A DNA stretch of 64,000 bases from Phycisphaerae bacterium (GTDB taxonomy: Bacteria > Planctomycetota > Phycisphaerae > SM23-33). The notes beneath the pieces were generated by a model that saw only the letters and a list, made by a program, of their open reading frames with translations, ran no database searches and had not been told where the DNA came from. The translations under genes were made by a program, and so were the position numbers. The stretch spans positions 30,042-94,041 of the forward strand of contig DRGC01000032.1 of NCBI GenBank assembly GCA_011050235.1, in the 5' to 3' direction. Below, piece by piece: positions 1,098 through 55,513 of this stretch; positions within the stretch are counted from its first letter, which is position 1; every line of letters begins with the position of its first letter.

Positions 1098-1970
1098 TCA
1101 GGCGTGGTCGGCGCGGAGTAGGGCTTGGTCGGTGGCGTGTTGGCGGAGGGTGGAGAGGTCGGCGGCGGCTGGGGTGTGGGTCAGGTCGGGGAACTCGTTG
1201 GCTCGAAAGCATGGGCGGTATTGGCCCATGATGTTGATCGCGCAGCCGGGGGCGGCTTGGGCGACGGTGTCGATGACGCCGCGGCTGTTGGCGAGATCGT
1301 TGGGCATGACGAGGTGCCGGACCAGAACCCCCCGGGTCGCAACACCGCGCCGGTCGGTCTGCAGCTTGCCCGTCTGCCGATACATCTCAGCCAGGGCGGC
1401 GGCGGCGACGGCCGGGTAGTCGCTCACGCCCGAGTACGTCCGCCCGCGGGCGGGGTCGGCCCATTTGAAGTCCGGCATGTAGATCTCGATCAGCCCGGCC
1501 AGCAGCTCCAGCGTCTCGACCCGCTCATAGCCGCCGCAGTTGTAGACGACGGGCACGCTCAGCCCGCCCGAGCGGGCGATGGCGATCGCCTCGGCGACGG
1601 CGTGGGCGACGTGGGTGGGCGTCACGACGTTGACGTTCTCGCAGCCGTCGCGCTGAAGACCCAGCATCATCTCGGCCAACTGCTCGGCCGTCACCGCCCG
1701 GCCGCGGTCGCTGTGGCTGATGTCGGCGTTCTGGCAGAACACACAGTCGAGGTTGCAGCCGGCGAAAAAGATCGTCCCGCTGCCGCCGCGGCCGACCAGG
1801 ACGGCCTCTTCGCCGAAGTGCGCCCCCGCCGAAACCACGACCGCCCGCTCGCCGATGCGACACGCCCCCACCTGCCCGGCCGTCCGGTCCACGCCACACG
1901 CCCGCGGACACAGCCCGCAATCGCGGATAAGCTCCCGAAGCTGATGCACGTTGTCCGCCAAGGCAGGCAT
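1098..1970 (-). CDS. radical SAM protein, PflA/PflX-like (glycyl-radical activase / AmmeMemoRadiSam-type) family
   Basis: A CxxxCxxC cluster is embedded in AGCNLDCVFCQN, and the N-terminal CGLCPRAC motif is typical of this subgroup. About 290 aa. Confidence 0.7.
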   Translation of the reverse strand: MPALADNVHQLRELIRDCGLCPRACGVDRTAGQVGACRIGERAVVVSAGAHFGEEAVLVGRGGSGTIFFAGCNLDCVFCQNADISHSDRGRAVTAEQLAEMMLGLQRDGCENVNVVTPTHVAHAVAEAIAIARSGGLSVPVVYNCGGYERVETLELLAGLIEIYMPDFKWADPARGRTYSGVSDYPAVAAAALAEMYRQTGKLQTDRRGVATRGVLVRHLVMPNDLANSRGVIDTVAQAAPGCAINIMGQYRPCFRANEFPDLTHTPAAADLSTLRQHATDQALLRADHA

Positions 1971-1983
1971 GGCGCTAGTGTAG

Positions 1984-2105
1984 CAAAGCTAAAAGCTGAA
2001 AGCTTAAAGCTGAAATTCAAGAACGACCGCCGCGACACGATACCGATTCTTGTTTTCAGCTTTTGTCTTTCAGCTTTAAGCTTTCAGCTTTAAGCTTTTG
2101 TTTCC
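1984..2105. repeat. inverted pair of heptanucleotide tandem arrays (NAAAGCT)x5 ... (TTTNAGC)x7 around a ~35-nt spacer
   Basis: CAAAGCT AAAAGCT GAAAGCT TAAAGCT GAAATTC, then a spacer, then TTTCAGC TTTTGTC TTTCAGC TTTAAGC TTTCAGC TTTAAGC TTTTGTT. It overlaps the stop of the DUF502 gene and lies upstream of the radical SAM gene. Confidence 0.8.
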
Positions 2106-2770
2106 GCTCCTTTGTCGAAGTTCATGTGTTCTGGCGTGACGGCGCCGCCGGAGACGATGAACGTCATCGCTTCGTCGACCGTCCAGTCGGTGGCGGTGAT
2201 CTTTTCGATCGGGACGATCTCGAGATAGCCCGAGGTCGGGTTGGGGGTGGTGGGCACATAGACGGCCGCGAGCTTTCGGCCGGTGTCGGAGTCCTCGAAC
2301 GTTCGCGTCACCAGGCCAACCGTCTTCATCTCCGGCGACGGGAAGTCGATCAGGACGACGCGTTGTACGTCGTCGGGGCTGGTCTGGAAGGTCACTAGCA
2401 GCTTCTTGGTCGCACCGTAGATGATCTTGACGATCGGGACCTGCTCCATCACCCAGTCCAGCAGGCCGATCAATTGCCGACCGATGACCTTGGTCGCCAT
2501 CCAGCCCAGCACCAGCAGGACCAACACGACCAGCACCACCGCCACGGCCGAGAGGAAGAACGGGTTGGTCACCGTCTCGGCCAGCCAAGGCGCGTGCGGG
2601 CGGATGGCCTTGGCCAGTTGCTCCACGGGCGGCCCGCCGACGGTCGTCAGGATCCGCACGACGAACGCCACGATCACCCACGTCACCGCCAGCGGGATGA
2701 TCGTCAGGATGCCGGCGATTAGGTACTTCTTCATGGCGGCGCCGAACGGGTTGGATTTCTTCCTGGCCAT
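2090..2770 (-). CDS. DUF502 family membrane protein
   Basis: The N-terminus MKKYLIAGILTIIPLAVTWVIV..., a second TM segment, and a YVPTTPNPTSGYL C-terminal region match the DUF502/COG2928 pattern. An alternative start lies at 2734. Confidence 0.65.
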   Translation of the reverse strand: MARKKSNPFGAAMKKYLIAGILTIIPLAVTWVIVAFVVRILTTVGGPPVEQLAKAIRPHAPWLAETVTNPFFLSAVAVVLVVLVLLVLGWMATKVIGRQLIGLLDWVMEQVPIVKIIYGATKKLLVTFQTSPDDVQRVVLIDFPSPEMKTVGLVTRTFEDSDTGRKLAAVYVPTTPNPTSGYLEIVPIEKITATDWTVDEAMTFIVSGGAVTPEHMNFDKGAETKA

Positions 2771-2851
2771 TGGGGCCCCTTTCTATGTGTGGTCGCCCCG
2801 AAGTCTACGCGCCAGCGCCGGCGGCTGAAAGCTTAAAGCGGCCGGGCGGAC

Positions 2852-2908
2852 GGCCGGGCGAGTGCGCCGGCGAGTTGGGGCAATATCTCGGTCGACAATA
2901 CCAACCGG
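2852..2908 (+). repeat. ~57-nt dispersed repeat, copy 1 (upstream of PEP-CTERM gene)
   Basis: The core GCGCCGGCGAGTTGGGGCAATATCTCGGTCGACAATACCAACCGG matches 3904..3948 at 43 of 45 positions. GGCCGGGCGAG lies upstream in both copies. Confidence 0.8.
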
Positions 2909-3209
2909 TGGGTGGCGGCGAAGGACACCATGAGGATGACGCATCCTGCCAAGAGTCTTGCCAAGAACGATGTTTTTTGATTGAACCCCCCCCGAATTTG
3001 AAGTAAACTACGCGTGTTGTGTAGAAACCAGCAGGCAATTCCTCGTGCTTTTGACAGAAACACTTCTGTTCCACTCGAGGAAGAGGAGGAGGCCATCTTG
3101 TGGAGGGCAAGCAAGAGAACCGTGACGGTGGCCCGCTGTATGAAGAACATCCATTGCGATGCGAACTTGAGACGAAGCGTTTACCAATACCAAAGCGAGG
3201 AGAAGCACG

Positions 3210-3875
3210 ATGAAGACGATTCGGACCATTCTGCTTGGCTTGGCGCTAACCTGTGGGCTTTCGACCGTAGCTTTCGGCGCCACGTTCGTTCAGACAACCC
3301 CGTACTTTAGCGCCGGTGACAGCCCGTTCAACACGGCGGCGCCCGGGTACCAAATCGAAGACTTCGAGGACTTGACCTTGAACACCCTCGGCATTCTTTC
3401 GTGGAGCACCTCCTTTGGCTCAGGGATATCTACGTTCTCGGTCGATGCTGATGACGGCGTCATCGACGGGTCAGGGGCTGGGGGGAAGTCGCTGTCGGTT
3501 GTCACCAGTGCAGGGGTCACCGGGTTGTTTATCAACTTCGATAGTGTCACATTTGGGCAATTCCCACAGGACGTCGGCATTGTGGTCACCCTTGCCAGTG
3601 CATTTCCTCTGGTCATTGAGGCGTTCGACCCTCTGGGCTTCTCGCTGGGAACGACCACGGCAAACTTGGCCTTGTCATCGCCGACCGGCGATGATGTGTT
3701 CTTCGGCGTAACGGACGTCGGCGGGATTTCGAAGTTCCACGTCTACTCAAACAGCGCGGCCACGTTCCTCCATGTGGACCACCTGCAGTACGGCCCTATC
3801 CCCGAACCAGCCACGATGAGCCTGCTGGCCCTGGGCGGCCTGGCCTTGCTACGGCGCAAGTCGAAGACCCCCTAG
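3210..3875 (+). CDS. PEP-CTERM sorting-domain secreted protein
   Basis: N-terminal signal peptide. The C-terminus is PEPATMSLLALGGLALLRRKSK: a PEP motif, a TM helix and a basic tail. Confidence 0.7.
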   Translation: MKTIRTILLGLALTCGLSTVAFGATFVQTTPYFSAGDSPFNTAAPGYQIEDFEDLTLNTLGILSWSTSFGSGISTFSVDADDGVIDGSGAGGKSLSVVTSAGVTGLFINFDSVTFGQFPQDVGIVVTLASAFPLVIEAFDPLGFSLGTTTANLALSSPTGDDVFFGVTDVGGISKFHVYSNSAATFLHVDHLQYGPIPEPATMSLLALGGLALLRRKSKTP

Positions 3876-3879
3876 GGGC

Positions 3880-3948
3880 GGCCGGGCGAGCGCGCAGGCG
3901 GGCGCGCCGGCGAGTTGGGGCAATATCTCGGTCGACAATTCCGACCGG
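3880..3948 (+). repeat. ~57-nt dispersed repeat, copy 2 (downstream of PEP-CTERM gene, upstream of PEBP gene)
   Basis: Same core, with a 12-nt insertion. Same orientation as copy 1, so the PEP-CTERM gene 3210..3875 is bracketed by direct repeats. Confidence 0.8.
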
Positions 3949-8189: not shown

Positions 8190-9536
8190 CTAGCTCTTTC
8201 TGGTCTTCTTCTTCGTCGCCTTCTTCCGGGCCGTCTTCTTGCCGACCGCTTTCTTACCGGTGGCTTTCTTGCGGGCCGTTTTCTTGTGGGCGGGCCTGGC
8301 GGCGACGCGGGGCTCGAGGATGTACTGTCCGCGGCCGAGGTCGAACGCGTCGTGCACGATGCGCAGGGCCTTCTTGGCGGACCTGGCCTCGACCAGACAG
8401 GAGATCTTGATCTCGCTGGTGCTGATGTTCTCGATGTTCACGCCGGCCTTGCCCAAGGCGCTGAACATCTTGAAGGCGACACCCGCGTGCGTTCGCATGC
8501 CGCCGCCAACGATGGCAACCTTCGCGAGGTGATCTTCGTAGACGGCCTTGCACTTGAGCTTCTTCGACAGATCGTTGACGACCTTCCGGATGTCCGGCAG
8601 GTCGGTCAGGTCGATGGTGAACGACACGGTGGCCGTCTTTCGGTCGACGACGGTCTGGATGATGTCGTCGACAATGATGTTGTGGTTGGCGACGACCTGG
8701 AAAATCTTTGCGACGATGCCGGGCCTGTTGGGCGTTCCGGTCAGGGTCACGCGCCCAAGCTTTTCCTTGAGGGCCGCGCCCACGACGACGATTCTCTCCA
8801 TGGCTTCGGTGGCAGGCACGATCAGGGTTCCTTTCCTGTTATGGTTGGTGTTGCGAACGTGGATCGGGACGTTGTGGTGCATGGCGAGTTCGACGGCGCG
8901 GTCCTGCAGGACGGCGGCGCCGAGGCCGGCCAGTTGGAGCATCTCCTCGTAGCTGATGCGGTCGACCTTGCGGGCGTTGGGGACGATTCGCGGGTCGGCG
9001 GTGAACACGCCGTCGACGTCGGTGAAGTTCTCGCACACGCCTCCCAACGCGGCCGCCATCGCCACCATCGACACATTGCTTCCGCCGCGCCCCAGCGTGG
9101 TGACGTGCCCATCGGGCGTGATGCCCTGAAAGCCCGCCACGATCACGATCCGTCCGGCGCGGAGATGTTCGCGGACGCGTTCGGCGTCGATGCTCTTGAC
9201 GCGGGCCCGCATGTGGACCTCGTCGGTGATCAGGCGAATCTGCGCCCCGGTCAGGCTGATCGCATCGACGCCGCGCGTGTGCAGCGTCATCGCCATCAGG
9301 GCGATGGTCACCTGCTCGCCGGTGGCCAGCAGTTGATCCATCTCGCGGCGCGGCGGGTCCTTGGTGATCTGGTGGGCCAAGTCGATCAGGGCGTCGGTCC
9401 TCTTGCCCATGGCCGAGACCACCACCACAACCTGGTTGCCCGCACGCCTGCACCGGATGGCCCGGTCCGCCGCCCGCCGAATCTTGTCGGCGTCGGCGAT
9501 ACTCGTGCCGCCGAATTTCATTACGACCACGCTCAT
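8190..9536 (-). CDS. lysC: aspartate kinase with an unusual Lys-rich C-terminal tail
   Basis: MKFGGTSIADADKIRRAA..VVVVSAMGKRTDALIDLA, plus ACT domains. Start placed at MSVVVMKFGG; the upstream extension in the ORF track is rejected. The C-terminal ~40 aa are KK(T/A)ARKKATGKK repeats. Confidence 0.85.
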   Translation of the reverse strand: MSVVVMKFGGTSIADADKIRRAADRAIRCRRAGNQVVVVVSAMGKRTDALIDLAHQITKDPPRREMDQLLATGEQVTIALMAMTLHTRGVDAISLTGAQIRLITDEVHMRARVKSIDAERVREHLRAGRIVIVAGFQGITPDGHVTTLGRGGSNVSMVAMAAALGGVCENFTDVDGVFTADPRIVPNARKVDRISYEEMLQLAGLGAAVLQDRAVELAMHHNVPIHVRNTNHNRKGTLIVPATEAMERIVVVGAALKEKLGRVTLTGTPNRPGIVAKIFQVVANHNIIVDDIIQTVVDRKTATVSFTIDLTDLPDIRKVVNDLSKKLKCKAVYEDHLAKVAIVGGGMRTHAGVAFKMFSALGKAGVNIENISTSEIKISCLVEARSAKKALRIVHDAFDLGRGQYILEPRVAARPAHKKTARKKATGKKAVGKKTARKKATKKKTRKS

Positions 9537-21184: not shown

Positions 21185-21342
21185 TAGTCCGTAACTTGGT
21201 GGGTGGCACAGGTTGCTTGCAACCTGTGTTGCTACACCTACACGGCTTGCAAGCAAGCCGTGGCACCCAGCTTTCCTGCGGACCGGAGGCGAGTCGCGTC
21301 GAAACTCATCGGGGCGATCGGCCGATAAGTAAGTACCCCCCC

Positions 21343-50276: not shown

Positions 50277-50405
50277 GATTGCGGATTGCGGATTGGCGAT
50301 TGCGGATTGAAAAACAAAGTGCGGCGGGTCACTGACTCCGCCGCACGTCGTTTCTTCTATCTTCTGTTCAATCCGCAATCCGAAATCCGAAATCCACAAT
50401 CGCAA
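50277..50405. repeat. inverted pair of heptanucleotide tandem arrays (GATTGCG)x5 ... (CGCAATC-type)x5 flanking the ahcY terminator hairpin
   Basis: GATTGCG GATTGCG GATTGGC GATTGCG GATTG, then the terminator, then CAATCCG CAATCCG AAATCCG AAATCCA CAATCGC. It fills the 130-nt gap between convergent ahcY and the REC-GAF regulator. Confidence 0.85.
50319..50368 (+). terminator. rho-independent terminator of ahcY
   Basis: A perfect 9-bp GC stem (GTGCGGCGG...CCGCCGCAC) with a 10-nt loop is followed by the T-rich tract GTCGTTTCTTCTATCTTCTGTT. It lies 44 nt after the ahcY stop. Confidence 0.6.
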
Positions 50406-51404
50406 TTATTCGTTTCGCCGGACGGCGACCGCTGTTGGGCGGGCGGTCATTTCGGCCAGCGATATGTCCAGATCGGTGAAAGGCTGTTCGCCTTTGCGAT
50501 AGAGGACCACCAGGCCGATCAGTTCGCCCGGCTCGGGGACCAGCGGCAGCAGCAGAACGCTCAGGCCGGGCAGGTAGCGGCGGATCTGCTGGGGGAACTG
50601 CTCAGCCTCGTCGCCGGCATCCATCACCATGCACTGAGGGCTGGTCAGAGCGATCTCGACCAAGGGGAGACAAAGGGCCTGGCAAAACTCCAGTTGGTCG
50701 GGGGTGGGCACACCGAACCGCCCCATCACGTGCAGCTCGGCGTCTTCGTTGCAGACCAACGCTATGCCGTGGACCGGGCCGCTGCGACGAACGAACAACT
50801 GGAACAGCGAGCGGAACACGTCGTCGTCGCACTTGGCCCCGATCAACTCTCCCTGGTAGCCGATCACGATCTGCTGGAGGGCCATCTGGCTGCTGAGCGC
50901 CTTGTAGGCGGCCGTCAGGTCGGCGCACGTGCTGTCGAGCTGTTGGCCTATCTGCTTGCGTTCGATGTTGACCCCCCGGGCCAGGTCGCGCAGTTTCAGT
51001 GTGCGTTGCTTCGTGCGGTGTCGGGCGCTGCGGCGCTCGAGTTCCTGGCGAACCGTCATTCTCAGGCGGTCCATGTCCAGCGGCTTGGTCATCAGCTCGA
51101 CCAGGCCGATCTGGGTCGCCTCGGCGACGGCCTCGGTGTCGTCGCAGCCGGTGATGACGACCGCCGGAATGTCGCCGATGGTCTCGCGCAGGTGCGCGAT
51201 GACATCCAGGCCGGTGTGGTCACCCAGCCGAAGGTCCGCGACGATCAGGTCGACCGGACCATCGGCCGCCAGGGCCAGCGCCTCGTCTTCCGAGGCCGCG
51301 GCCAGCACCTGAAGGTCATCGGCGGCCAGCGCGTCGGTCAGAAGTTCCCTGAGCTCGGGTTCGTCGTCGACCACCAATACGCGTGCGGTCTGATTGCCTG
51401 CCAA
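50406..51404 (-). CDS. response regulator, N-terminal REC domain + C-terminal GAF-like domain
   Basis: VLVVDDEPELRELL..DLIVADLRLGD..G is a CheY-like receiver with a phospho-acceptor Asp. The C-terminal ~170 aa are GAF-like. Confidence 0.6.
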   Translation of the reverse strand: MAGNQTARVLVVDDEPELRELLTDALAADDLQVLAAASEDEALALAADGPVDLIVADLRLGDHTGLDVIAHLRETIGDIPAVVITGCDDTEAVAEATQIGLVELMTKPLDMDRLRMTVRQELERRSARHRTKQRTLKLRDLARGVNIERKQIGQQLDSTCADLTAAYKALSSQMALQQIVIGYQGELIGAKCDDDVFRSLFQLFVRRSGPVHGIALVCNEDAELHVMGRFGVPTPDQLEFCQALCLPLVEIALTSPQCMVMDAGDEAEQFPQQIRRYLPGLSVLLLPLVPEPGELIGLVVLYRKGEQPFTDLDISLAEMTARPTAVAVRRNE

Positions 51405-52043
51405 CGTCAGTCCTCCTGCGCCCCATCGAGGGCGCTCGGGTCAAATAGACGATCCACCGAAACGCTCAAGCGTCATTGGCGAGCGGGCGGCCCAGGTGTC
51501 AGGGCGGCCCGCCTGTCGCCTCCGTTCTAGATATCGGACTCGCAGGAAGCATCTTGAGTTTGCGCTGCGGAACTTTTCAGCCTAAATATCCCACCGTAAG
51601 GGCCGTCCAAAGAAAAACTTACAAGGGCCCGCTCTGCCCCTAGAGTGATGGGCACAGTCGTGTAGGCACGCCGGGGCTCTGCCAGCCGATGGCACAATGA
51701 TCGGGTGCCACGCTCTTGCGCTGTGTGCAAAAGCGTGAAGGGACCTGAACAAACACGCTTCTGCAAGTCCCGACGTATCCCGACGTACATCGGGAGGATG
51801 GCGCCCCCACCTGAGCTATGTAATATCGGAATCTGCCCTTAGCGGTCTTACGTAAGTTTGTAGCGGTTATGGTGGAAGATGGGCAAGTCGTGGCCTTACC
51901 CGTTGCCTCCCACCCGAGCTCAGCATATCAGAGCCCAACTGTCGCGGCCGGCCGATACCTCATGTGCCGATGTATCGTTCCGTTCGACCGAGATACCCCC
52001 TTTCCCAAGACCGGCAAGCGTGCCCCCACCTGCAGAGCCGTTG

Positions 52044-52078
52044 CATTGGACATTGGACATTGGACATTGGGCATTCGG
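52044..52078 (+). repeat. heptanucleotide tandem repeat array (CATTGGR)x5
   Basis: CATTGGA CATTGGA CATTGGG CATTCGG CATTGGG, immediately 3' of the minus-strand regulator gene. Seen directly in the sequence. Confidence 0.8.
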
Positions 52079-52113
52079 CATTGGGACGCCCCCCCGTCAA
52101 CCGGCCCCCGCCC

Positions 52114-52707
52114 CTAGGGCCGCACCAGGGCGACGATGCGGTCGACCACCTGCTCGATATTGAACGGTTTGCGGATGAACTCGTCCGCCCCCGCCTCCGT
52201 GAGGCGCCGGACCTCCGATGCATTGGCCACGCCCGATATCATCAGAATCTTGATGTGCGACAACTCCGCATGCCGGCGAATGGTCGTACAGACGACATTG
52301 CCGTTGACGTCCGGGAGCATGTAGTCCAGCACCAGGATGTCCGGGCGGAACTGCTGGGTCAAAACGCCGGCGTCGTAGCCGGTCGTCGCGGTGACGACCT
52401 CGAACCGATCATCCCCATCGAGGACATCCACGAACAGATCGATGATCTCCGGATCGTCGTCCACCACCAGGACGCGAATCTTGTCGCCTTCGATCTGGTC
52501 CAGTGGGATCTTGTTCGCCCTCATGAACGTGATGAGGCTATCGCGCGGGATGCGACGGAACTTGCTGCCGGGCACACGGAATCCTTCGAGCTGCCCGCTA
52601 TCGAAGCAGCGAATGATCGTCTGTTGAGACAGATTGCAGATCTGGGCGGCCTCGCCCGTGGTGTACACTGCCTTGTGTCGCACGCCTGCATCTCCTTTTT
52701 CGTTCAT
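52114..52707 (-). CDS. response regulator with N-terminal excisionase/MerR-type HTH (HTH_17) and C-terminal REC domain
   Basis: YTTGEAAQICNLSQQTIIRCFDSGQLEGFRVPGSKFRRIPRDSL is the HTH_17 region. RVLVVDDDPEII..DILVLDYMLPDVNG is the receiver. Confidence 0.6.
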   Translation of the reverse strand: MNEKGDAGVRHKAVYTTGEAAQICNLSQQTIIRCFDSGQLEGFRVPGSKFRRIPRDSLITFMRANKIPLDQIEGDKIRVLVVDDDPEIIDLFVDVLDGDDRFEVVTATTGYDAGVLTQQFRPDILVLDYMLPDVNGNVVCTTIRRHAELSHIKILMISGVANASEVRRLTEAGADEFIRKPFNIEQVVDRIVALVRP

Positions 52708-52903
52708 CGCTCGGCCGGCGCCGCTTCGATCCGCGGCGCCAAGGTAACCGAACGCCACGACAGCCTGACGCCGTAATGCGTCTGCTGATGAATCGACACA
52801 GTGATTGGCGAAACTTAAGTTTTCAAGCCCCCACCTTCCCCATTTTCTTCATCTTGCCAAGAGCGCCCCCAAGAGCTCGAAGCGCCACGTTATCGGACGT
52901 AGG

Positions 52904-53620: not shown

Positions 53621-55513
53621 TTACCCATCTTTACCGGCGGCGGCCGGTTGGCCGCGATTTTCGGCGCCGGCCAGGTAAATGGCAAGGACCGTCACATCGG
53701 CCGGCGTGATGCCGCTGACCCGCAGGGCCTGGCCCAGGGTGCGCGGGCGGATGTCGGTGAGCTTCTCCCCCGCCTCGCGCCGCAGGTGGCTGATCGCGGC
53801 GTAGTCGACCTCCGGCGGGATGAGCTTGGCGTCCAGGTCCTGCATCTGCCGCAGGGCCGTCTCCTGCTTGGCCAGGTACCCGGCGTAACGCAGATCGATC
53901 GTCAGCGATTCCACCGCATCAGGCTCGGCCTCGGCCAGTCGCCGCAATCGATCGGCCGTCGCGTCGTCGGCCTTGGCGAAAACTCGCTCGGCCGTCATGT
54001 CGGGCTGCTGGAAGTAATCGGCCAGCGTCTTGCCCTCGCACCGCGCAGCCGCCAGGAGGTCGCCGGCCTCATCGACGGCCGCCCCGCCCTGCTGGAAGCG
54101 CGCCCACCGATCGTCGGCCACCAGACCGACGGTCCGGCCGAGGTCGGTCAGCCGTCGGTCCGCGTTGTCGGCCCGCAGGTGCAGGCGATGCTCGGCCCGG
54201 CTGGTGAACATGCGGTACGGCTCGGTGACGCCCTTGGTGACCAGGTCATCGATCATCACGCCGATGTAGGCCTGGTCGCGCCGCAGGACCAGCGACTCGC
54301 GACCGGACGCGGCGAGGGCGGCATTGACGCCCGCGATCAGCCCCTGGGCGGCGGCCTCCTCGTAACCGGTCGTGCCGTTGATCTGCCCGGCCAGGTACAG
54401 GCCGCCTGTGGCTTTCGTCTCGAGCGTCGCCTGAAGCTGTGTCGGCGGGGCGAAGTCGTACTCGATCGCGTAGCCGTACCGCACTATCTCCGCCCGCTCC
54501 AGCCCGGCGATGTGATGGACGATGATCTCCTGCACATCCTCCGGCAGCGACGTGGAGATGCCGTTGACGTAGACCCAGTTGGTGGTTCGGCCCTCCGGTT
54601 CGATGAAGATCTGATGGCTCGTCTTGTCGGCGAAGCGCTGGATCTTCGTCTCCAGCGACGGGCAGTACCGCGGGCCCACGGCCTGAATCTGGCCGGTGTA
54701 GAGCGGGGCGCGGTGGAGGTTGGCGCGAATGACGTCGTGGACTTTCTCGTTGGTCGCCGTGATCCAGCACGGAATCTGATCCACGGCCAGCCGGCCGGTC
54801 ATGAACGAAAACGGCCGGGGGTGATCGTCGCCATCCTGCCGCTCGCAGCGGTCGGTGTCGATGGTCTCGGCCGCCAGCCGCGGACACGTACCGGTCTTGA
54901 GTCGCTGCAACTGGAGCCCACAGCGGACCAGGCTGTCGCCAAGCTTCTCGGCCGCCGGCTGGCCGTAGCGCCCGCCGGGCCAGGTGGTCTCGCCAAGGTG
55001 CATCAGGCCGCTCAGGAAGGTGCCGCTGGTGACGATGACAGCTCGGGAGCGGAATGTTGAATGCTGAATGCTAAATGCTGAATGGTCATCGCCACACGCC
55101 AAGCTAACACCGCAGACGCAGCCGCCTTCGGTGAGGATGTCAGTGACTTCCCCGGCAATGATCGTCAGGTTGGGCGTTTGGCGCAGGGCATCCTGGACCC
55201 ACGCGGCGTAGGCGTGGCGGTCGGATTGGCAGCGCGGGCCCCAGACGGCCGGGCCTTTCGAGCGGTTGAGCATGCGGAACTGAATCCCCGTCGCGTCGGC
55301 CGCCAGCGCCATCAGCCCACCGAGCGCGTCGATCTCTCGAACGATCTGCCCCTTGCCCACCCCGCCGATCGCCGGATTGCACGCCATCGCGGCAATCTCG
55401 GCCTCATCGAGAGTAATCAGCGCCGTCTGCGCCCCAAGCCGCGCCGCCGCATGGGCGGCCTCGGCCCCGGCATGGCCGCCGCCGATGACGATGACGTCAA
55501 AATCACAAGCCAT
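53621..55513 (-). CDS. mnmG: tRNA uridine 5-carboxymethylaminomethyl modification enzyme MnmG (GidA), with in-frame insertion encoded by a heptamer repeat
   Basis: MACDFDVIVIGGGHAGAEAA..., an FAD-binding fold and a length of 630 aa. The extra segment DDHSAFSIQHST is encoded by 55053..55086. Confidence 0.85.
   Translation of the reverse strand: MACDFDVIVIGGGHAGAEAAHAAARLGAQTALITLDEAEIAAMACNPAIGGVGKGQIVREIDALGGLMALAADATGIQFRMLNRSKGPAVWGPRCQSDRHAYAAWVQDALRQTPNLTIIAGEVTDILTEGGCVCGVSLACGDDHSAFSIQHSTFRSRAVIVTSGTFLSGLMHLGETTWPGGRYGQPAAEKLGDSLVRCGLQLQRLKTGTCPRLAAETIDTDRCERQDGDDHPRPFSFMTGRLAVDQIPCWITATNEKVHDVIRANLHRAPLYTGQIQAVGPRYCPSLETKIQRFADKTSHQIFIEPEGRTTNWVYVNGISTSLPEDVQEIIVHHIAGLERAEIVRYGYAIEYDFAPPTQLQATLETKATGGLYLAGQINGTTGYEEAAAQGLIAGVNAALAASGRESLVLRRDQAYIGVMIDDLVTKGVTEPYRMFTSRAEHRLHLRADNADRRLTDLGRTVGLVADDRWARFQQGGAAVDEAGDLLAAARCEGKTLADYFQQPDMTAERVFAKADDATADRLRRLAEAEPDAVESLTIDLRYAGYLAKQETALRQMQDLDAKLIPPEVDYAAISHLRREAGEKLTDIRPRTLGQALRVSGITPADVTVLAIYLAGAENRGQPAAAGKDG
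55053..55086. repeat. heptanucleotide tandem array (GAATGCT)x5 inside the mnmG coding sequence
   Basis: GAATGTT GAATGCT GAATGCT AAATGCT GAATGG. On the minus strand it reads in frame as HSAFSIQHSTF. Confidence 0.8.

Follow-up and report, generated by a model that had tools for sequence, protein, structure and literature searches.

What a mirror-image pair of tandem heptanucleotide arrays does at the junction of two bacterial genes, and how it came there, is the question raised by this locus. The locus (locus 1) lies between the gene of a DUF502 membrane protein and a radical-SAM gene, in a stretch of 64,000 nucleotides (nt) of a Phycisphaerae bacterium (contig DRGC01000032.1), hereafter called the window. 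The comparisons given below show that it is a heptanucleotide simple sequence repeat (SSR) palindrome, belonging to a lineage-wide family in a Phycisphaerae-type planctomycete. The explanation favoured here is that heptamer arrays, which slippage has lengthened and which mirror each other on either side of a small hairpin, act as a functional RNA hairpin at mRNA 3' ends. Taken as a whole, this explanation is evenly poised between right and wrong. Its DNA-level part (slippage, exchange between arms, insertion) is well supported, and the RNA role is inferred.

Anatomy and history of locus 1

The sequence of the source genome analysed comprises the window and about 8 kb outside it (L001). The orthologous loci of relatives were retrieved via exact-protein look-ups: L089 (DUF502 94% identical), L091 and L095 (DUF502/radical-SAM relatives at 67%), L092 (a 74% relative), L087 (syntenic locus, MnmG 79%), L097 (MnmG 74%), and L088, L098 and L099, whose mnmG DNA was compared. 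Array copy numbers are those given by Tandem Repeats Finder (TRF). The features of locus 1 are the following:

1098..1970, minus strand: radical-SAM gene, downstream cistron, its ATG 14 nt from the left array
1985..2015, read on the plus strand: left array, (AAAGCTN) x4.4 (TRF, sequence)
2016..2053: central spacer of 38 nt with its own small hairpin, CAAGAA...TTCTTG (folding)
2054..2098, read on the plus strand: right array, (TTTNAGC) x6.4 (TRF, sequence)
2090..2770, minus strand: DUF502 membrane-protein gene, upstream cistron (Pfam PF04367, E = 1e-27)
2821..2836: two-unit copy GCTGAAAGCTTAAAGC (16-mer), about 50 nt upstream of the DUF502 ATG

On the plus strand the left array (1985-2015) reads AAAGCTA AAAGCTG AAAGCTT AAAGCTG AAA and the right array (2054-2098) TTTCAGC TTTTGTC TTTCAGC TTTAAGC TTTCAGC TTTAAGC TTT. 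Both arrays score higher as 14-nt double units (TRF) and both are imperfect (76-87% matches); the best pairing of the arms extends over 36 nt with 92% complementarity. An earlier reading of the sequence alone had counted five and seven units around a spacer of about 35 nt. This architecture is correct; the counts are slightly generous (4.4 and 6.4 units by TRF, spacer of 38 nt). The imperfect palindrome of about 120 nt that it described, with the right arm overlapping the DUF502 stop, is indeed found, with a length of 115 nt (1985-2098): the right array provides the stop codon TAA (2090-2092) and the final codons of the gene. Likewise, the unit said to reappear as two copies at 2822..2836 is there (2821-2836) and repeats 16 nt of the downstream array exactly, in inverted orientation. 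This copy is kept in L089, and L092 carries a related sequence, GCTTTCAG.

The exact DUF502 protein is present on eight contigs. The palindrome is base-identical in all six contigs fetched (6/6; JGI, ENA and Logan assemblies; at least 5 samples). As these come from four assembly sources and several samples, the palindrome is not an assembly artefact, and it is shown to be stable on short time scales.

In L089 a palindrome occupies the same site, with a different sequence and different copy numbers, the four-fold degenerate sites of window and L089 being 83-92% identical. Variation of unit number between related strains, for which the sequence-only reading had proposed to look, thus exists between window and L089 and is absent among the six assemblies of the same organism. 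The left arm of L089 is AAAGCTG AAAGCTG AAAACTG AAAGCTA AAAGCTT AAAC and its right arm TTTTCAGC TTTCAGT TTTCAGT TTTCAGC TTT. Both L089 arms contain the variant AAAACTG/CAGTTTT, which is missing from the two arms of the window, and the variant AAAGCTT/AAGCTTT is prominent in both window arms. Moreover, the spacer core CCGCCGCGAYACGATACCGRTTC (within 2016-2051) is inverted relative to its flanks between window and L089 (local alignment score 19 inverted vs. 5 direct). These results show that the two arms co-evolve and recombine with each other; exchange from arm to arm leads to lineage-specific variants in both arms and to a spacer able to flip.

In L091, 2 nt separate the DUF502 stop from the radical-SAM start, and in L095 there is an overlap of 4 nt; the gap is 119 nt in the window and 98 nt in L089. 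Since the genes are adjacent or overlapping in L091 and L095, the palindrome is an addition of about 117 nt to an ancestrally coupled operon junction. The insertion is older than the split between window and L089, and has been structurally labile since. Two weak clues concern its origin: (i) the ancestral-type C-terminal codons of L091 (...CCCAAAGCGGACTAG; CCC AAA GCG GAC TAG) already contain AAAGC in their K-A codons, a possible local seed of the AAAGCTN unit; (ii) by comparison with the empty site of L095, the insert has an AGCG tetramer at its borders, which is within chance. In a DUF502 search of GTDB representative genomes the closest relative was just 67% identical, and the orthologous palindrome was found in none.

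In L092 the neighbour of DUF502 differs from that of the window. After its DUF502 gene (1601-1700) stands an inverted pair of tandem units of about 10 nt (GATRAACGCA) around a small hairpin (-50 kcal/mol). Given this unit length, the mirror-array architecture is not strictly tied to period 7.

A family of related heptamer arrays

With an array defined by at least 4 units and at most 3 mismatches, the window contains five arrays of period 7 and none of periods 5, 6 or 8-12; the number is about zero in 40 windows simulated by a first-order Markov model. In the background set (unrelated GTDB genomes of DUF502 relatives) period-7 arrays are rare, i.e., about 6 in 1.17 Mb. No other close inverted repeat of the 64 kb is as long as the palindromes of locus 1 and of a second locus (locus 2). 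The second palindrome had been announced at 50277..50405 and is present at 50277-50311 / 50367-50406. Two arrays of the window, 52044-52084 and 55052-55084, are additional to those noted before. The features concerned are:

50277..50311: left array of locus 2, (GATTGCG) x4.7, which begins 1 nt past the stop codon of the SAHH gene
50319..50346: GC-rich hairpin in the centre of locus 2, GTGCGGCGG...CCGCCGCAC, its tails T-rich on either strand
50367..50406: right array of locus 2, (CAATCCG/AAATCCG) x5.6, which abuts the response-regulator/GAF stop codon
50406..51404, minus strand: response-regulator/GAF gene, converging with the SAHH gene
52044..52084: solitary array, (CATTGGA) x5.9, 29 nt downstream of the HTH_17/response-regulator stop, without inverted partner
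52114..52758, minus strand: HTH_17/response-regulator gene
53621..55513, minus strand: mnmG
55052..55084, minus strand: array (GAATGCT) x4.7 in the mnmG coding sequence (TRF)

In the consensus scan the central hairpin of locus 2 (50319-50346) is terminator-like and has what defines an intrinsic terminator (a GC-rich stem of 5-15 bp followed by a U tract), the arrays being outside the motif; from its sequence it looks like a bidirectional intrinsic terminator. In L087 the same hairpin is surrounded by ATTGCGG x3.9 and TCCGCAA x4.1, and its closing pair is changed from G:C to A:T on both sides, i.e., in a compensatory manner. In L097, although a 296-aa gene now lies between the two genes of locus 2, GATTGCG GATTG is retained after the response-regulator stop, as is (AAATCMA)n after the SAHH stop. 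The unit GATTGCG is therefore identical in window, L087 and L097. The four-fold sites of window and L087 are only 46-67% identical (38% expected from composition), and at such a divergence the conservation of the unit in three lineages suggests a constraint or a sequence-specific regenerating process.

Position is also shared by these loci. In all the Phycisphaerae sequence fetched, 9/9 intergenic heptamer loci are localized at 0-35 nt from a stop codon and 0 between divergent genes. The array itself supplies the stop codon in three cases (DUF502 of the window, DUF502 of L089 and mnmG of L087). The site after the HTH_17/response-regulator stop is repeatedly occupied by differing short tandem arrays: where the window has CATTGGA units, L087 (5537-5580) has a 9-nt tandem unit, GAATCGGCA x3, and L097 has (TTGGGGC)x2.9.

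Arrays are found inside genes as well. MnmG of the window is 54-90% identical to proteins of metagenome-assembled genomes (MAGs) named Phycisphaerae or Planctomycetota. On its coding strand the array reads (AGCATTC)n and is translated into HSAFSIQHSTF, a 10-residue in-frame insertion with respect to E. coli MnmG, which has a tight turn there. In an alignment of 120 MnmG relatives, insertions in this loop range from none to more than 100 residues. When 121 MnmG proteins were screened for 9-residue windows matching a perfect heptamer-array translation with at most 1 mismatch, 50/51 of the array-like windows fell in one loop (query residues 137-148). Across Phycisphaerae, the MnmG surface loop (about 137-148) is thus a hot spot where heptamer arrays lie in frame, some of them as complete inverted-array palindromes. 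The in-gene arrays of relatives and the second gene concerned are:

L087 2375-2407: mnmG array
L088 10444-10532: mnmG palindrome, (GATTTCG)x4.6, 26 nt, (AATCCGA)x4.4; in frame, hairpin of -72 kcal/mol
L098 10409-10516: mnmG palindrome, (AATTGCG)x4.3, 48 nt, (TTCGCAA)x4.3
L099 10447-10491: mnmG single array, (CGACCTN)x6.4
L001 14417..16006 and L095 16781-16813: ComM/YifB-like Mg-chelatase-family gene

mnmG is not the sole gene affected, since the ComM/YifB-like protein carries array-derived peptides at one site in both the genome of the window (L001) and L095 (NPQSE...RNPKS and PHSELRTPHS).

For 13 roughly independent units, compared in all rotations and on both strands, the mean distance to the nearest neighbour is 1.08. 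For random heptamers of equal composition it is 1.89 +/- 0.21, and 0/2000 simulations were as low. The units cluster around GATTGCG / GAATGCT / GAAAGCT, i.e., GAWTGCK-like sequences; they are variants of one theme, and their relation across loci is significant. The second palindrome had been credited with a different heptamer: its unit (GATTGCG) is another one indeed, although it is a related variant and not an independent sequence. That the element would be one of a family with further loci is confirmed by one more array of the source genome outside the window (L001 17629-17657) and by the arrays of relatives, with further inverted pairs in L087, L088, L098, L100 and L101.

At a contig end of a Gemmataceae MAG (L100 1-300) is a nested palindrome of 22-nt and 7-nt arrays, in which 22-nt units GCGCGGGAAATCCTCACCCGCT and (GAAATCC)x12.6 are mirrored by (TTCGGAT)x4.4 and inverted 22-nt units. 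For a 20 kb mur/fts cell-division cluster (L101, ENA ERZ25039471 contig_23734) TRF gives 26 period-7 rows, a number that includes overlapping calls. Three small 23S_rRNA_IVP (PF05635) genes there lie between inverted heptamer arrays, and a 257-nt array (CGGGACA x37) lies with its inverted partner within the called murD open reading frame (ORF). In a Syntrophobacterales MAG (L020 8508-8690), (AGTTCAA)x4.6 is followed by a segment of about 110 nt with a 17-nt inverted repeat (AGACCTCTGCGAAAATC / GATTTTCGCAAAGGTCT) at its ends, after which AGTTCAA-like units resume; this gives the appearance of a small element inserted into a heptamer array.

TCGGATT, the commonest unit type, is free of stop codons in all six frames. 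Its two translations were combined into a synthetic query, (DFGFRIS)4(NPKSEIR)4, which matched 953 proteins at E <= 10; the breadth is an apparent one, this heptamer being the single one queried. The 120 matches listed are all domain-less proteins of 45-98 aa from many metagenomes. Several of those inspected hold both TCGGATT translations, i.e., both arms of a palindrome read as a spurious ORF. L100 and L101 are two of the contigs from which such matches come. A joint reading, which is doubtful at present, would be that heptamer-array palindromes are an active, self-propagating class of small DNA present in several phyla. Such a class would have a preferred GAWTNCG / TCGGATT-like unit free of stops in six frames, and would settle at the 3' ends of genes, at operon junctions and in permissive loops of proteins (mnmG, comM-like), bracketing in some genomes whole small genes (23S-rRNA-IVP, L101). 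If this were true, it would imply a dedicated sequence-specific machinery or RNase III-type processing, rather than passive polymerase slippage.

The predicted RNA hairpin and its competitors

The RNA of locus 1 folds at -53.5 kcal/mol (z -5.8) with 24 consecutive pairs. Folding, suggested as a check by the sequence-only reading, gives strong hairpins for the two palindromes of the window (-53.5, -66.6 and -73 kcal/mol; z -5.8, -8.5 and -9.3), and all the homologous and analogous loci fold alike (-49 to -73 kcal/mol). On the transcript the right array is the 5' arm, (AAAGCUN)n. The left array, read on the gene (minus) strand, is the 3' arm of the hairpin, (NAGCUUU)n, and ends 14 nt before the radical-SAM ATG.

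The mechanism proposed is as follows. At the DNA level, where it is well supported, arrays grow and shrink by slipped-strand mispairing, in steps of 7 or 14 nt. The two arms exchange information and recombine, by template switching or by recombination across the palindrome. The whole 117-nt structure was added to the tightly coupled DUF502/radical-SAM junction, where it now provides the DUF502 stop. As both genes are on the minus strand, the palindrome is presumably part of the DUF502 transcript, either internally or at its end. The transcript would fold into an A/U-rich stem of about 30 bp capped by the small hairpin, so that the likeliest effect would be that of a 3'-end or intercistronic hairpin, as with repetitive extragenic palindromes (REP) and bacterial interspersed mosaic elements (BIME) in enterobacterial operons. 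The stem might block 3' exonucleases, terminate transcription in part, or be cleaved by a double-strand-specific RNase, uncoupling the cistrons. At locus 2, where the genes converge, the arrays would lengthen the stem of a bidirectional terminator of canonical type.

Several results weigh against this explanation. The RNA role of the palindrome is deduced entirely from sequence. Locus 1 is not a classical intrinsic terminator, because its stem is long and A/U-rich, without the canonical GC stem and U tract; besides, if termination 14 nt ahead of the radical-SAM ATG were efficient, an ancestrally co-translated gene would be silenced. Solitary arrays (52044-52084; L087 3810-3912) cannot form hairpins, yet they occupy the same kind of position, hence the hairpin is not the sole common denominator. 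Within coding sequences (mnmG, comM-like), where arrays and whole palindromes occur, a terminator role is impossible. In-gene copies and solitary arrays fit tolerated selfish or neutral DNA. Finally, the mirrored order of unit variants between the arms was not significant in a permutation test (best case 27/500).

The competing explanation to be considered most seriously, possible though rather unlikely, is that of a neutral or selfish by-product: slippage-prone DNA wherever it is tolerated (3' intergenic space, permissive loops), made palindromic by template switching during replication and without any cellular role. This would account for the arrays and full palindromes in frame in mnmG of many lineages and in the comM-like gene, for the patchy presence among close relatives, for the solitary arrays at equivalent sites and for the extension of arrays exactly to stop codons, as if coding constraint were the sole limit. 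The short domain-less metagenome ORFs translating TCGGATT arrays point the same way. It does not account for the conservation of the locus 2 unit across three lineages beyond neutral expectation, nor for the strong bias to stop-proximal positions over start-proximal or divergent regions (9/9 loci). Moreover, the units of independent loci are related, for which local slippage of arbitrary seeds alone does not account. Another competitor is a mobile miniature element, akin to miniature inverted-repeat transposable elements (MITE), REP or REP doublets forming hairpins (REPIN), in which a transposase or recombinase acting in trans would move array-hairpin-array into gene ends and coding loops. The clean insertion of about 117 nt at locus 1 with respect to the empty sites of L091 and L095, with a possible 4-nt AGCG border repeat, argues for this, as do the complete palindromes with their own GC hairpin in mnmG, where there is no pre-existing terminator. 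In addition, the L088 mnmG spacer and the locus 2 hairpin loop have GGAGTCGGT in common, and the heptamer units of the loci are related. However, the spacers have no alignable core beyond this one 8-9-mer (GGAGTCGGT-like), judged compatible with chance; the arms differ in unit and length between loci; the 4-nt flank repeat is within chance, and the AAAGC already present in the ancestral K-A codons suggests a local seed. According to the called-gene lists of neighbouring loci, no transposase adjoins any copy, and no gene of a REP-associated tyrosine transposase (RAYT, IS200/IS605-like) is present in those lists, to which the search was limited, a genome-wide one not having been made. No near-identical second copy, as expected of a MITE, is found in the available sequence (64 kb plus about 8 kb), and nothing common beyond the heptamer theme is seen, whereas REP, BIME and REPIN are one conserved palindrome of 20-40 nt genome-wide. 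A mobile element is improbable.

A third view takes the 7-nt units as iterated sites for a sequence-specific DNA- or RNA-binding protein, the palindrome being secondary. The clustering of the units of the 13 loci around GAWTGCK-like sequences (1.08 vs. 1.89, 0/2000) and the conservation of the locus 2 unit are in its favour, as is a resemblance to the preferred heptamers of Nostoc (GGGGATT) and Xanthomonas (GGGAATC) reported in PMC4692102. It is nevertheless very improbable: units differ by 1-3 positions between loci, AAAGCTN being among the most divergent; a 7-bp spacing places successive sites on different helix faces; and no candidate protein is linked to any locus. As to a phase-variation (contingency) locus, where frequent changes in copy number would switch DUF502 or radical-SAM expression, the unit is not a multiple of three, the array overlaps the stop and the copy number differs from that of L089. 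Such a switch is hardly credible, since imperfect arrays (76-87% matches) suppress slippage, the genes are of housekeeping type and not surface antigens, and the same architecture is found between convergent genes, where a switch is impossible. In its hypermutable form it is rejected, as unit number does not vary among the six assemblies of the same organism.

Other candidates were also discarded. CRISPR, integron attC sites, retrons and riboswitches do not apply: unique inserts of the spacer type are absent, the vicinity contains neither an integrase nor a reverse-transcriptase gene, and no core is conserved. Consensus scans for promoters and terminators gave no match at the locus 1 palindrome. 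With Rfam 15, no family reaches the gathering threshold anywhere in the window, and the sub-threshold matches at 1982-2101 are to plant microRNA-precursor hairpin models only.

Relation to known repeats

Heptanucleotides are the most abundant long SSR class in prokaryotes, attributed to polymerase slippage, and their arrays are mainly intergenic (Mrazek 2007, as cited in PMC4679880 and PMC4692102). The window arrays agree with this class: units of 7 nt are repeated head-to-tail in 4.4-6.4 copies, period 7 is over-represented, and copy number and sequence vary between relatives at the same site (L089; L087, L097). Rehm et al. 2015 (PMC4692102) found about 185 GGGAATC arrays per Xanthomonas genome, with 70-75 convergent inverted pairs capable of forming stem-loops. 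Site occupancy is conserved between species there, the lengths vary, the single or paired type is preserved and the function is unexplained. Inverted pairing, thought unusual in the sequence-only reading, is thus not new. Like the Xanthomonas GGGAATC and Nostoc GGGGA(T/C)T arrays (PMC4692102), those of the Phycisphaerae are tandem 7-nt units, mostly in 2-6 copies, mostly intergenic and in some cases intragenic; convergent inverted pairs are shared with Xanthomonas, the window containing two. On the contrary, the window units (AAAGCTN, GATTGCG, CATTGGA, GAATGCT) contain no G3 run, hence no G-quadruplex potential; they are a set of related variants and not one genome-wide consensus, are hosted by a planctomycete, and are tightly stop-proximal, flanking small hairpins or terminators. 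The TAACTGA direct repeats of Beggiatoaceae and cyanobacteria (MacGregor 2015; PMC4679880) are also abundant intergenic heptamers in 2-6 copies, with interspersed variant units and in distant phyla. They are placed directly upstream of start codons in forward orientation, with one inverted example, whereas the Phycisphaerae arrays are stop-proximal and often inverted.

The likeness to cyanobacterial short tandemly repeated repetitive (STRR) sequences noted earlier holds: the arrays are STRR-like heptanucleotide tandem arrays, period 7 is favoured and the position is mainly intergenic. STRR, which particular heptamers define, are mostly single direct arrays of heterocystous cyanobacteria, whereas here the taxon is another one and mirror-image pairing is prominent. 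The window units presumably differ from the STRR heptamers. REP and BIME of enterobacteria are intercistronic palindromes stabilising the upstream mRNA; REP units of 20-40 nt have one conserved sequence, and a RAYT transposase is cognate to them. When transcribed, these palindromes fold into hairpins, which can protect a 3' end or attenuate read-through. By analogy they would provide the functional model adopted here, being extragenic palindromes placed after stops, in operons or between convergent genes; they differ in that the arms at the present loci are tandem heptamer arrays, with no common core and no RAYT in the called-gene lists of neighbouring loci. Rickettsia palindromic elements (RPE), which Ogata et al. 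are said to have described in 2000, reportedly are 100-150 nt long, have conserved family sequences and stand in frame in protein-coding genes. The present arrays resemble RPE as palindromic repeats tolerated in frame in essential genes at surface-exposed positions (mnmG loop, comM-like gene); they differ from RPE in being tandem heptamers and have no sequence relationship with them.

No paper describing heptamer arrays in Planctomycetes was found in a literature search of partial coverage. What differs from the known arrays is the phylum, the absence of G tracts, the related unit variants, the association with stops and terminators, the spacer inversion and the recurrent occupation of the MnmG loop. 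With respect to the sequence-only reading, the insertion into a coupled operon, the clustering at stops and terminators and the in-frame occurrence in genes are added. Among the long simple repeats of bacteria, heptanucleotide arrays are the most over-represented. A clean natural series is now at hand: an empty site where the genes overlap, an occupied one whose two alleles have diverged and differ in spacer orientation, a locus 2 unit conserved beyond neutral expectation around a terminator, and in-frame copies in an essential tRNA-modification gene. For annotation, it matters that heptamer arrays are routinely mis-called as short hypothetical proteins and that they alter the C-termini and loops of real proteins.

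Some minor features of the window must be mentioned. A segment of about 640 nt without convincing ORF (51405-52043) lies between two response-regulator genes, at a position where L087 and L099 encode a HisKA/HATPase sensor kinase; as tblastn of the L087 kinase against the window gave no match, this gene appears lost or replaced. Near the two-unit copy upstream of DUF502, an insert of about 1 kb (2902-3875) is flanked by direct duplications of about 65 nt (2838-2901 and 3876-3941) and carries a 221-aa hypothetical gene (3210..3875, plus strand). It is absent in L089, where a PBP-family gene directly adjoins DUF502. A period-15 tandem repeat (8217-8291) consists of five copies of CGCTTTCTTGCGGGC with 73% matches. 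Lastly, an unusual nested palindrome at 21200-21269 is formed by the adjacent self-complementary blocks CACAGGTTGCTTGCAACCTGTG and CACGGCTTGCAAGCAAGCCGTG, bracketed by TGGGTG...CACCCA.

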